Shown here one piece after another: positions 1 to 5,524 of a stretch of DNA of 7,042 bases (positions within the stretch are counted from its first letter, which is position 1; each line of letters begins with the position of its first letter). Position numbers and translations under genes: made by a program. The stretch is taken from IMG/VR virus record IMGVR_UViG_2636416140_000004; one strand, 5' to 3'. The notes under the pieces were generated by a model that ran no database searches, was not told the DNA's origin, and worked only from the letters and a program-made list of their open reading frames with translations. Source of the DNA: a virus (lineage: Duplodnaviria > Heunggongvirae > Uroviricota > Caudoviricetes).

Positions 1-31
1 TACACTAAATCAGTAAGTTGGCAGCATTACC
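1..31 (-). mobile_element. Terminal 31 bp of a second IS1 copy; the body lies upstream of the window
   Basis: Positions 1..31 are identical (31/31) to 5494..5524, the insA-proximal inverted-repeat end of the complete IS1 at 4757..5524, in the same orientation. Confidence 0.85.
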
Positions 32-750
32 TACACTTCCGCCATATGGTAAGCATCATAGGTAATAATCTGGTTAAGGCTGCGCAAAGTAGCGTAACCC
101 GGTGCTGTTGGATACTGCGCACGAGGTGTGTGGTAATACTCCCAGGCCTGACGCAGTTCTTCGTTCGGCGCATCGGCCTCCTTCATTGGAGCCAGTGGCA
201 TAATGGCGTATTCTTCGCTGCTAATATCGCTGGTTCGGGCGTTTGAGCCAGCTTCAATGTGTGGCAGAGCATCAATAGATTTCACATTGTTTTCCCAACC
301 ATTGCGGAACATCGAACCAATATTGACCGCACTAACGGTACCGATGGCCTTGATGCGGCGATCCTGAATTGCAGCATTGGCTGTATATCCTGCACCGGCA
401 CAAATTCCCATCGCACCAATTCGGGTATTGTCGACATAAGAAAGCGTTGTCAGGTAATCAATCACGGCACTGACGTCTTCAGTACGAATGTATGGGTTTT
501 CTAACTGACGCGGCTCGCCGCCACTTTCACCTTGATAAGATGCGTCATAAGCAATAGTGACAAATCCCTTTTCCGCCAGCTTTTCGGCATAGGTTCCGGC
601 CGTTTGCTCTTTAACGCCCCCACCTGGGTGAGATACCACAATTGCCGGATACTGACGGGTTTCATCAAATTTTGGAGGGAAATAGATCACTGCAGACAAA
701 GAGATGGTTGGATTATTGCTGTTAGTGAAGCTGACTTTATTATTCATCAT
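31..750 (-). CDS. ycjY: Alpha/beta hydrolase of the dienelactone-hydrolase type (YcjY-like), probably 3'-truncated by IS1
   Basis: 239-aa ORF with a G-x-C-x-G nucleophile elbow (AMGICAGAGY) typical of Cys-nucleophile dienelactone hydrolases; SD GAGGAA upstream of the start; divergent from a LysR regulator as in the ycjY-pgrR locus. The TAG stop is formed by TA of the gene plus the first G of the IS1 end. Symbol assigned from remembered synteny, not a search. Confidence 0.6.
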   Translation of the reverse strand: MMNNKVSFTNSNNPTISLSAVIYFPPKFDETRQYPAIVVSHPGGGVKEQTAGTYAEKLAEKGFVTIAYDASYQGESGGEPRQLENPYIRTEDVSAVIDYLTTLSYVDNTRIGAMGICAGAGYTANAAIQDRRIKAIGTVSAVNIGSMFRNGWENNVKSIDALPHIEAGSNARTSDISSEEYAIMPLAPMKEADAPNEELRQAWEYYHTPRAQYPTAPGYATLRSLNQIITYDAYHMAEV

Positions 751-790
751 TCAGTTCCTCATGGAGTTGTCGGTTCGTTTTGACGGTTGG

Positions 791-862
791 TGATATCACT
801 ATAGATATTGATCATTAAGTTGATTAGACCCTAAATCATGATTAGACCTATCATTTAAATGA
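791..862. promoter_or_regulatory. Divergent promoter/operator region between the hydrolase and LysR genes, with palindromes and a direct repeat
   Basis: Perfect palindromes TGATATCA (791..798) and TCATTTAAATGA (851..862); interrupted palindrome ATCAttaagtTGAT (811..824); direct repeat TGATTAGACC at 821..830 and 839..848. LysR regulators typically bind dyads in their own divergent promoter. Confidence 0.3.
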
Positions 863-887
863 TTAATAGATTGTATGGAGATACTGA

Positions 888-1323
888 ATGAAGCGTGAAG
901 AAATCGCTGATCTGATGGCGTTTGTCGTCGTTGCAGAGGAGCGTAGCTTCACTCGCGCAGCAGCCCGCCTGAGCATGGCGCAGTCAGCTTTAAGCCAGAT
1001 AGTGCGCCGTATAGAAGAACGATTGGGATTGCGGCTTCTGACGCGAACCACGCGCAGCGTTGTACCCACTGAAGCGGGCGAGCATCTTTTGTCTGTTCTT
1101 GGCCCTATATTGCATGACATAGATTCTGCCCTGACATCCCTGAGCGATCTGCAGAACCGCCCATCCGGGACAATACGTATTACTACTGTAGAACATGCAG
1201 CAAAAACGATATTGTTACCAGCCATGCGCACATTCCTGAAATCGCATCCTGAAATTGATATTCAGCTTACCATTGATTATGGTTTGACCGATGTCGTTTC
1301 TGAACGTTTTGATGCAGGCGTCC
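888..1323 (+). pseudogene. pgrR: LysR-family transcriptional regulator (PgrR/YcjZ-like), truncated after about codon 145 by IS600
   Basis: N-terminal HTH (EERSFTRAAARLSMAQSALSQIVRRIEERLG) and start of the co-inducer domain; the frame runs into the IS inverted repeat at 1324 and ends in IS-derived codons (to 1370). SD GGAG at 876..879. Confidence 0.8.
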
Positions 1324-1366
1324 TGAGGTGTACTGGCAATAGCGGACACTACCATTTGTTCTTTTT

Positions 1367-2185
1367 TTAAGCAGCCATCTGATGATATTTTTCCCTGAAG
1401 GCTGCCGGGGAGATATTCCCCAGACGAGAGTGACGACGCTGACGATTGTAGAAAATCTCAATGTATTCCCGTATTACTGAGATGGCTTCATCCCGGTTAT
1501 TAAAACGATAGTGGCTCAGGCTCTCATTTTTCAGCGTTCCCCAGAAGCTTTCCATCGGAGCGTTGTCGTAACAGTTACCTTTACGCGACATTGATGTTTT
1601 CAGACCAAACTGCTCCTGTATGACCCGGTAATCGTATGCGCAGTACTGTGAACCTCGAGCAGAGTGGTGGATTAGCCCGGCAGGTGGGCGCTGGCTCCTG
1701 AGCGCCATAAACAGGGCTTTACCTGTCAGCTCTTTTGTCATGCGCTCTCCCATGGCGTAGCCGACAATTTCGCACGTATAAACATCTTTGATGCCAGCGA
1801 GGTACAACCATCCCTCCTGTGTGGCAACATACGTCAGGTCCGCCACCCAGACCTGATTTGGTGCTGTAGGAGCGAACGTCTGGTTCAGCAGATTTGGCGC
1901 AACTGGCAGATTGTGGTTCGGGTTCGTAGTCGCTCTGAACTTGCGTTTCTGCTTACAGCGTAGCCTTAGCTCCTTACGAAGACGTGCCAGTCGGTCACGA
2001 CCAACGATGATGCCATTCTCTGCCAGCTCCGTCTGGAGCCGCCGGGTTCCATATGTTTCGCGAGTGCGGATATGTGCCACCTTAATCTCCAGTTTTAGCC
2101 GCTCATCACTTTGTTTTCTGTCTGAGGGTTCATGCTGTACCCAGTTGTAATAACCGCTCCTGGATACACCAAATACCTGACACAT
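1367..2185 (-). CDS. IS600-like OrfB (DDE catalytic domain; expressed as OrfAB fusion by -1 frameshift)
   Basis: 272-aa ORF with an rve-integrase-like core (VWVADLTYV...HHSARGSQY...NAPMESFWGTLKNE). Its frame is the -1 frame relative to orfA at the slippery site. Confidence 0.85.
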   Translation of the reverse strand: MCQVFGVSRSGYYNWVQHEPSDRKQSDERLKLEIKVAHIRTRETYGTRRLQTELAENGIIVGRDRLARLRKELRLRCKQKRKFRATTNPNHNLPVAPNLLNQTFAPTAPNQVWVADLTYVATQEGWLYLAGIKDVYTCEIVGYAMGERMTKELTGKALFMALRSQRPPAGLIHHSARGSQYCAYDYRVIQEQFGLKTSMSRKGNCYDNAPMESFWGTLKNESLSHYRFNNRDEAISVIREYIEIFYNRQRRHSRLGNISPAAFREKYHQMAA

Positions 2186-2220
2186 CGCTTCAATGGGAAA
2201 TTGTTGTCGCCATTGTTCGA

Positions 2221-4330: not shown

Positions 4331-4335
4331 ACTAA

Positions 4336-4357
4336 ACCCGCTTCGGCGGGTTTTTTG
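4336..4357 (+). terminator. Rho-independent terminator of the hok transcript
   Basis: Stem CCCGC (4337..4341) / GCGGG (4346..4350), loop TTCG, then TTTTTT (4351..4356). Confidence 0.85.
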
Positions 4358-4502
4358 TTGCGTGCTGAATACGCAGGGTGAAAAATAACCATATATTTGA
4401 TTATATACACAACAAAAAATAAAAGTCATTGTACTTGCACATTAAACAATCAAATATACGGCGTGAAATAAATGTTTTTCAGATTAATATTTTTGTCTCT
4501 AT

Positions 4503-4754
4503 GTGGATATAACCGTTTGTACTTATAAACCTGGAGGCATCGTGGAAAAAATAAAGAAACTATTTAGTAGCAAATACGCAGTCATACGTCGTGATGACCT
4601 GTCAGTTATAGTCGAAATGGATTACTTCCCTGAAACCCCAAAATCAATAATGTATCGTAATGGTCGAAAGGCAATTTTTTTACCGATGAGGGTAAGTGAC
4701 ATTATGGGAAATGATAAACTGCTGGATGAATTGCGAGTCAGAGCATCCTGTTAG
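4503..4754 (+). CDS. rem: Small prophage protein, Rem-like (83 aa); start codon uncertain
   Basis: 83-aa ORF from GTG 4503 lying between hok and a ydfU-like gene, as rem does in the K-12 Qin prophage. An in-frame GTG at 4542 has a better SD (GGAGG 4533..4537) and would give 70 aa. Confidence 0.45.
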   Translation: MDITVCTYKPGGIVEKIKKLFSSKYAVIRRDDLSVIVEMDYFPETPKSIMYRNGRKAIFLPMRVSDIMGNDKLLDELRVRASC

Positions 4755-4756
4755 TA
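4748..4756. repeat. IS1 target-site duplication, left copy (CTGTTAGTA)
   Basis: 9-bp sequence immediately left of the IS1 end, identical to 5525..5533; contains the native TAG stop of the rem-like ORF. Confidence 0.9.
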
Positions 4757-4771
4757 GGTAATGACTCCAAC

Positions 4772-5275
4772 TTACTGATAGTGTTTTATGTTCAGATAAT
4801 GCCCGATGACCTTGTCATGCAGCTCCACCGATTTTGAGAACGACAGTGACTTCCGTCCCAGCCTTGCCAGATGTTGTCTCAGATTCAGATTATGTCGCTC
4901 AATGCGCTGAGTGTAACGCTTGCTGATAACGTGCAGCTTTCCCTTCAGGCGTGATTCATACAGCGGCCAGCCATCCGTCATCCATACCACGACCTCAAAG
5001 GCCGACAGCAGGCTCAGAAGACGCTCCAGTGTGGCCAGAGTGCGTTCACCGAAGACGTGCGCCACAACCGTCCTCCGTATCCTGTCATACGCGTAAAACA
5101 GCCAGCGCTGACGTGATTTAGCACCGACGTAGCCCCAATGTTCGTCCATTTCAGCGCAGACAATCACATCACTGCCCGGTTGTATGCGCGAGGTTACCGA
5201 CTGCGGCCTGAGTTTTTTAAGTGACGTAAAACCGTGTTGAGGCCAACGCCCATAATGCGTGCACTGGCGCGACAT
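4772..5275 (-). CDS. insB: IS1 InsB (catalytic part, expressed as InsAB' fusion)
   Basis: 167-aa ORF with typical InsB sequence (...[22 protein letters not shown]...GWPLYESRL...). Confidence 0.9.
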
Positions 5276-5469
5276 CCGACGCCATTCATGGCCATATCAA
5301 TGATTTTCTGGTGCGTACCGGGCTGAGAGGCGGTGTAAGTGAACTGTAGTTGCCATGTTTTACGGCAATGAGAGCAGAGATAGCGCTGATGTCCGGCAGT
5401 GCTTTTGCCGTTACGCACCACGCCTTCAGTAGCGGAGCAGGAAGGACATCTGATGGAAATGGAAGCCAC
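5194..5469 (-). CDS. insA: IS1 InsA (zinc-finger/HTH transposition inhibitor)
   Basis: 91-aa [21 protein letters not shown]...CSHCRKTWQ with the Cys4 motif; GTG start as in IS1. Confidence 0.9.
5212..5218 (-). other. IS1 A6C programmed -1 frameshift site (A_AAA_AAC)
   Basis: Minus strand reads TTA AAA AAC (L-K-N of InsA). By frame arithmetic, a -1 slip enters the insB frame. Confidence 0.8.
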
Positions 5470-5524
5470 GCAAGCACCTTAAAATCACCATCATACACTA
5501 AATCAGTAAGTTGGCAGCATTACC

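Follow-up and report, generated by a model that had tools for sequence, protein, structure and literature searches.

An IS-riddled piece of the Shigella flexneri chromosome where ycjY-pgrR adjoins a decayed Rac-like prophage

Filed as the IMG/VR virus record IMGVR_UViG_2636416140_000004, the 7,042 nt of DNA considered here (the window) contain two copies of the insertion sequence (IS) IS1 in the same orientation, one of them entering at the left edge by its terminal 31 nt, with an IS600 between them. An original prediction, made from the letters alone, took this IS load as the sign of a Shigella-like genome. The inference has stood: the window is an IS-riddled piece of the Shigella flexneri chromosome, at the boundary where ycjY-pgrR meets a decayed Rac-like prophage, and on this the IS junctions, the S. 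flexneri labels, the joints shared with other strains and the published IS censuses agree. We regard it as highly probable that the reading holds as a whole, i.e., that this is an S. flexneri contig, that the two IS1 copies inserted independently in the same orientation, that IS600 occupies a joint, and that the lineage has undergone deletions of its own.

The window corresponds from end to end (1-7042) to ANAN01000163.1 of assembly GCA_000815945.1, a whole draft contig of 7,042 bp whose left edge lies 31 nt into IS1 and whose right edge stops 27 nt short of a prophage tRNA cluster. GTDB places Shigella within E. coli. Among 5,426 complete E. coli genomes, none holds at least 80% of the window and none has any of the four junctions between an IS and its flank, and the ycjY site is uninterrupted in 5,235 of them; junctions of the window are, in contrast, shared with named S. 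flexneri genomes. The source label is S. flexneri for all four of the products specific to this arrangement, namely the 239-aa YcjY fragment, a 160-aa chimera of PgrR and IS600, a 147-aa Q-like protein and a variant of DUF551 (4/4).

The density of elements points the same way. Shigella reference chromosomes carry 229-348 IS each vs. a median of 32 in E. coli, with parallel expansion of IS1, IS2, IS4, IS600 and IS911 at population scale (Hawkey et al., 2020, PMC7373316). Typing of S. flexneri by ISMapper gave a median of 194 IS sites and a catalog of 1,778 unique sites (PMC7373316), and 109 chromosomal IS1 copies were counted in S. flexneri M90T (PMC7132871). The proposal that an IS1 plus IS600 load with IS-truncated genes typifies Shigella and enteroinvasive E. 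coli (EIEC) is consistent with both this census and the IS1 count. Three IS in 7 kb are uncommon for any one window of a Shigella genome (P ~0.0035-0.017); at the median IS load of E. coli the probability falls to ~2e-5, some 200-900 times lower, and this difference supports the inference of a Shigella-like genome.

The internal IS1 is complete. It occupies 768 bp (4757..5524) on the minus strand, is bounded by 23-nt terminal inverted repeats (arms 4757-4779 and 5502-5524, 87% complementary), and encodes a 91-aa InsA (5194-5469) and an open insB frame ending at 4772, with the A6C motif TTAAAAAAC as the -1 frameshift site at element nt 305. The Pfam domain DDE_Tnp_IS1 is found in the window, and Zn_ribbon_InsA, HTH_Tnp_IS1 and DDE_Tnp_IS1 are found on the same insertion in loci L023 and L026. 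Sequence comparison places a 9-bp target duplication, CTGTTAGTA, directly to its left (4748..4756) and to its right (5525..5533), and the empty site, with a single CTGTTAGTA, is preserved in E. coli VL40 and in locus L031. Closed S. flexneri loci (L023-L030 and L032) have the identical insertion at this position of the prophage, the carriers including 2013C-3749 (serotype 3b), AR-0425 (2a), AUSMDU00010535 (2a) and FDAARGOS_535 (1b), among others.

Of the upstream IS1, only the insA-proximal (left) terminal 31 nt lie in the window (1..31, minus strand), the remainder being off it. They are an exact copy of 5494-5524, i.e., the same IS1 end in the same orientation, and the element accordingly runs from insA to insB leftward in window coordinates, as does the internal copy. 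A short IS end at the edge of a window may be a mere contig break. Short-read assemblers halt on entering a multicopy repeat, and the 31-nt stub, lying where the draft contig itself ends, marks such a break within IS1. Despite breaking in this repeat at the left, contig ANAN01000163.1 crosses one full IS1 and one full IS600, a passage that suggests scaffolding or gap filling in the assembly.

What lies beyond the break is seen in other assemblies. At least 24 contigs encode the IS1-truncated 239-aa YcjY, comprising the window's own contig and short fragments between IS elements, mostly below 2 kb. At this ycjY junction, related contigs enter IS1 by 26, 73, 123 and 220 nt, all without a mismatch to the internal copy. 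A junction on the far side was predicted and gene products were searched for it; a 62-aa remainder of ycjY is indeed annotated in S. flexneri assemblies. The far-side contig used here is NGVZ01000370.1 (L073), which belongs to the same assembly, NGVZ01, as the contig with 220 nt of near-side IS1. It opens on the other IS1 end, of which 224 nt are present and differ from the IS1 of the window at one position; GGAAGTGTA comes next, and then 461 nt made up of the 3′ remainder of ycjY and the DNA beyond it. GGAAGTGTA is window 32-40 (TACACTTCC) read on the other, ycjY coding, strand, and it occurs once in intact ycjY. The 9 bp at 32..40 are thus one target duplication of the upstream IS1, recurring beyond its other end, and both termini with their duplication are seen in the sister assembly NGVZ01 rather than in the source assembly. 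By this comparison, the upstream IS1 is in all likelihood a genuine simple insertion in ycjY with its own 9-bp duplication, its central ~324 nt being unobserved. The concern that the upstream copy would prove to be a solitary fragment, which the original prediction had itself raised, is therefore not borne out, both ends and the duplication being present. A predicted 74-aa open reading frame (ORF) beginning within the right end of IS1 was absent from the protein collection. P0010 and P0013, both partial fragments of the hydrolase, and P0001 in a first look-up matched unrelated contig-end fragments, mostly metagenomic, which were set aside.

Two chromosomal genes are inactivated by these elements. 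The putative alpha/beta hydrolase gene ycjY survives as codons 1-239 of 306 (31..750, minus strand; Pfam DLH/Peptidase_S15), cut by the upstream IS1 in codon 240 with a stop codon arising at the junction; 230 of the 239 residues match residues 1-239 of K-12 YcjY. On the plus strand, pgrR (ycjZ, encoding a LysR-type repressor; Pfam HTH_1/LysR_substrate) retains codons 1-145 of 299 within a reading frame at 888..1370, of which the pgrR part extends to 1323; 142 of the 145 residues match K-12 PgrR 1-145, after which a tail of 15 codons derived from IS600 completes the 160-aa chimera. K-12 and window 32-1323 form one collinear block of 97.4% identity. The chimera is also found in closed S. flexneri genomes, e.g., 71-2783 (serotype 3a, CP024470.1), and in the chromosome-sized contig UGYT01000001.1. 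Closed S. flexneri loci whose 10-kb flank extends to this side show, at the locus edge, a full 306-aa YcjY gene call followed by truncated pgrR and IS600.

The two IS1 copies, with identical ends, bracket 4,725 bp (32-4756), as had been noted at the outset, and the content described for this interval (two inactivated chromosomal genes, IS600 and a prophage segment with hok/sok) is confirmed in the form of truncated ycjY and pgrR, IS600 and sok/hok. Direct repeats of IS1 can delete or mobilise the DNA between them, and by analogy the pair is a potential substrate for RecA-dependent deletion or for Tn9-like composite transposition. As general IS1 biology this part of the original prediction stands, but no trace of either process is found here: both target duplications are kept and the unit occurs nowhere else. 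Because each IS1 keeps its own target duplication, the two copies are independent simple insertions, and neither has recombined with another IS1 copy since it inserted; a composite transposon would bring one shared duplication on the outside, and as there is none, the block did not come in that way. Nothing indicates that the IS1 pair ever deleted or moved the 4.7 kb. With 109 IS1 copies placed at random, ~5.5-6 direct pairs at most 4.7 kb apart are expected by chance per genome. That two copies are paired here is a side effect of the spread of IS1 and serves no function. That the 4.7-kb block is nevertheless unstable or mobile in its lineage, through IS1 x IS1 loss or through Tn9-like excision or transposition that would take the hok/sok module along, we consider improbable; were it so, there would be heterogeneity within the lineage that is hidden from short-read assemblies.

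The third element differs in nature from the two IS1 copies in that it lacks a target duplication. IS600, of the IS3 family, is intact at 1324..2587 on the minus strand: it measures 1264 bp, its inverted repeats start with TGAGGT, and it has orfB (1367-2185, 272 aa), orfA (2221-2523, 100 aa) and an A7G slippery run at element nt 316. It is 99.3-99.8% identical to the copies in closed S. flexneri loci, and the RefSeq features under the matches read "IS3-like element IS600 family transposase". A 3-bp target duplication is absent from its flanks, which are TCC on the left and GTG on the right. The same pgrR-adjacent IS600 in closed S. flexneri genomes is flanked by TCC and CTT, with no duplication in any genome examined. 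A control copy, IS600b in locus L027, has a clean CAG/CAG duplication, which validates the comparison. Since no genome shows a duplication around the pgrR-adjacent IS600, its right flank was never the original one. By its flanks, IS600 at 1324-2587 is a rearrangement or deletion joint, marking an ancestral S. flexneri rearrangement between pgrR and the prophage first and a lineage-specific 4.76-kb deletion second. Recombination between IS600 copies had been suspected from an apparent 9-12-nt match past the end of the element at other IS600 copies; a base-level check at IS600b (L027) identified this as over-extension by BLAST, and the candidate was dropped.

The joint of the window lineage, from IS600 to GTGTTCTGG, is read by other contigs. 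L063, L064, L069 and L065 carry 75, 96, 96 and 28 nt of IS600, respectively, across it with no mismatches, and L063 and L065 continue from there into IS1 at 4757. The IS600-flush joint is not an artefact of contig ANAN01000163.1. The ancestral joint runs from pgrR codon 145 (window 1323/1324; L024/L027 958-2224) to the ydaU region of a Rac-like prophage. In K-12, pgrR and Rac have the same orientation, Rac being the downstream one at a distance of ~20 kb, and a deletion would yield the order seen in the window. Measured against K-12, such a simple deletion would span ~29 kb and take out fnr. S. flexneri has a functional fnr, so the pgrR-prophage joint probably arose by a more complex route.

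Comparison with closed S. flexneri genomes separates what is shared from what is particular to this lineage. The joint between pgrR and IS600 and the prophage IS1 are common to closed genomes of serotypes 1b, 2a, 3a and 3b. From the closed loci of 2013C-3749, AR-0425, AUSMDU00010535 and FDAARGOS_535 the window lineage differs by the IS1 in ycjY and by the lack of 4,764 bp and 2,276 bp that they carry in addition. Lost in the 4,764-bp deletion are ydaU, itself interrupted by an IS, a ydaV-like gene, DUF977, DUF4014 and the larger part of an HNH gene. The 2,276-bp deletion (L027 11330-13605) comprises the inverted copy IS600b and an ORF6N gene and cuts off the 3′ end of the Q-like antiterminator gene, whose product is shortened from 184 aa to 147 aa. 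The only contigs on which this product was found are short ones of S. flexneri, from the same samples as the IS1 junction in ycjY. Lineage markers occur together in samples such as GCA_002174575.1, GCA_049894925.1 and SRR35312051, and co-occurrence with the DUF551 variant is seen in GCA_017282435.1 and GCA_017281985.1. A joint without target duplication at IS600 and two further deletions in the lineage thus go beyond what the original prediction described.

A highly probable history can be assembled from these comparisons. In the part shared with other S. flexneri, IS600 at pgrR codon 146 links pgrR to prophage DNA, and an IS1 entered between a 70-aa ORF and the DUF1367 gene by simple transposition, duplicating CTGTTAGTA. 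In the window lineage, 4,764 bp of prophage at the right end of IS600 were deleted, another 2,276 bp were lost together with the second IS600, the ORF6N gene and the 3′ part of the Q-like gene, and a second IS1 transposed into ycjY codon 240 in the same orientation, duplicating TACACTTCC. Since the prophage IS1 is common to several serotypes and the ycjY IS1 is lineage-specific, the former is the older of the two.

Could the paired elements instead be a product of assembly, the 31-nt stub being a k-mer overlap and the internal IS1 and IS600 joint the result of gap filling, so that no real IS1 pair exists? The draft contig does end 31 nt into a multicopy repeat while spanning a full IS1 and a full IS600, and every other assembly breaks at these IS elements. 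Yet no fewer than 24 contigs of independent assemblies show the IS1::ycjY junction and reach up to 220 nt into IS1, the far-side junction carries the matching 9-bp duplication, four independent contigs read through the joint between IS600 and the prophage, and closed long-read chromosomes hold both the internal IS1 and the joint between truncated pgrR and IS600. An artefact is therefore very unlikely. Somewhat less remote, but still improbable, is an upstream IS1 that has lost internal sequence or is otherwise a defective remnant, with limited homology to the internal copy, as what has been seen of it amounts to the two ends (220 and 224 nt) and does not include the ~324 nt between them. However, two termini and a perfect 9-bp duplication are the product expected of a simple insertion of the full element, the 444 nt seen differ from the internal copy at one position, and 220 nt per end would by themselves sustain homologous recombination.

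A composite transposon of the Tn9 type, having arrived as a unit or actively transposing, has the architecture in its favor: Tn9 consists of direct IS1 copies flanking non-IS DNA, the copies here are direct repeats 4,725 bp apart with a passenger between them, and the internal one appears intact. We give this explanation hardly any credence, since the outer flanks (GGAAGTGTA/TACACTTCC on one side and CTGTTAGTA on the other) share no single duplication and each IS1 has its own, CTGTTAGTA vs. TACACTTCC. The inner DNA, moreover, is collinear with the ancestral chromosome and prophage, and the prophage IS1 is present in genomes without the ycjY IS1. A second genomic context was not found either: the unit is absent, at a threshold of 80% query cover, from the 5,426 E. 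coli genomes and from 72,556 plasmids, where the matches are to the IS parts alone. An origin in EIEC or another IS-rich E. coli, rather than in Shigella, seems just as remote. EIEC lineages have the same five expanded IS types (PMC7373316), and some E. coli plasmids carry IS1 and IS600 close together, but none of the four junctions exists in any complete E. coli genome (n = 5,426), the junction-specific proteins are labelled S. flexneri only, and the joints are shared with named S. flexneri strains.

Several points nonetheless weigh against the overall reading preferred here, of an S. flexneri contig with independent IS1 insertions, an IS600 joint and lineage-specific deletions. No closed genome of the exact lineage was present in the collections searched, and searches for one by the 239-aa YcjY fragment and by the 147-aa Q-like truncation gave short contigs only. 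For the middle of the upstream IS1 (~324 nt) and for the physical linkage of the far-side contig, the reading leans on a sister draft assembly and has no direct view of the source strain. IS600 may have come to join pgrR to the prophage by deletion, by inversion or in several steps, and the three lineage-specific events may have occurred in any order. Finally, subpopulations with a recombined IS1 pair would be invisible to short-read data.

The ycjY-pgrR locus has been struck more than once. In S. flexneri 71-2783 and in UGYT01000001.1, ycjY is broken elsewhere (L002/L003 8397-9726, corresponding to window 614-619) by an IS3-family element of ~1.33 kb, IS2-sized, that encodes an OrfA of 121 aa and an OrfB of 301 aa. 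Separate lineages have thus each lost ycjY on their own, and to IS of more than one type. In an E. coli-like contig of 42 kb (L042 9378-10189; Logan SRR17184625 contig 94), a 187-aa pgrR fragment adjoins a 62-aa ycjY remainder, an arrangement that looks like an independent deletion across the divergent pgrR/ycjY promoter region. Contamination of public assemblies is the most likely reason why E. coli/Shigella YcjY and PgrR fragments in clusters P0015 and P0045, carried by contigs of 421-437 bp, are also filed under Streptococcus danieliae and Weissella cibaria.

To the right of IS600, the window is prophage. The segment at 2588..4756 (plus strand) is a remnant of a Rac-like, lambdoid prophage, collinear with E. 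coli VL40 (L001 9001-11172) and with S. flexneri locus L027 from 6986; the VL40 prophage is Rac-like, as it carries genes for RecE, YdaE, YdaT and YdaU. All of its features lie on the plus strand: the last 42 bp of the HNH gene (2588-2629), a 221-aa ORF (2626-3291), a DUF551 gene identified by Pfam (3291-3656), sok (3942-4116; Rfam RF01794, 118.1 bits against a gathering score of 59), mok/hok (4054-4266; Pfam HOK_GEF) and the 70-aa ORF (4542-4754). A Hok/Gef reading frame with an overlapping sok region identifies a type I toxin-antitoxin module of the hok/sok kind. The Rfam match to sok lies on the plus strand, the same as hok/mok, though Sok is described as an antisense RNA. Beyond the internal IS1, the nin/Q region of the prophage (5534..7042, plus strand) holds DUF1367 (5603-6202), DUF1364/YbcO (6202-6492) and the Q-like DUF1133 gene, cut to 147 aa (6489-6932) with the 2,276-bp deletion joint at 6931/6932. 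A search of phage records with the prophage part gave partial matches to the hok region only. One record, PP818812.1 (H71, Actinobacillus phage vB_Apl-pPE4), is 97.2% identical to window 3653-4756, unexpectedly close for a phage of Pasteurellaceae.

Small as it is, the prophage remnant is an IS hot spot, which fits prophage remnants serving as IS sinks. One closed locus of 20.6 kb (L024) contains seven gene sets for IS-type transposases. S. flexneri 71-2783 has an extra IS600 (L003 15424-16688, corresponding to window 4626) 130 bp upstream of the prophage IS1 site, past which other IS and tail genes stand in place of the prophage.

The locus is an instance of already known Shigella IS biology and has little significance beyond bookkeeping. 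IS expansion in Shigella is known to inactivate genes and to be associated with deletions and rearrangements, at sites that vary by lineage (PMC7373316). An individual description of IS1 in ycjY codon 240 was not found in the literature, the supplementary site tables of PMC7373316 not having been searched. As an example of erosion by IS1 and IS600, the locus is a clean one, showing gene truncation, an IS-flush deletion and prophage decay side by side, and it illustrates how target duplications separate insertions made in situ from units that have recombined or transposed. An S. flexneri lineage that is without a closed reference might be recognised by three markers: the IS1::ycjY junction, the joint IS600|GTGTTCTGG and the Q-like gene product cut to 147 aa.

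Set beside known systems, the window resembles each in part. Like transposons of the Tn9 type, it has direct IS1 copies around a passenger of 4.7 kb, with an internal copy whose frames and termini are intact; unlike them, it has a separate duplication for each IS1, a native passenger in ancestral order and no second copy in the data searched. The deletion of 4,764 bp flush with the right terminus of IS600, together with the lack of a target duplication at this element, resembles the outcome of IS-adjacent deletion or of recombination between IS copies. The product fits two routes, namely transposition within the molecule or the insertion of a second IS600 with recombination afterwards, and either may be responsible; the 2,276-bp deletion, in contrast, has no IS at its joint. 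With Rac and lambdoid cryptic prophages of E. coli that carry hok/sok of the hokD type in their nin region, the window shares the order DUF551 - hok/sok - DUF1367 - DUF1364 - DUF1133 (Q-like), and its prophage is 98.7-99.3% identical to that of VL40; unlike those prophages, it is a remnant of ~3.7 kb, interrupted by IS1, truncated by IS600 and without part of the Q-like gene. A further likeness is to the IS-driven degradation of Shigella genomes, in which IS1 and IS600, both among the five IS types that have multiplied throughout Shigella, interrupt genes conserved in E. coli. From this the locus differs in no kind, being a single instance of it in one lineage.

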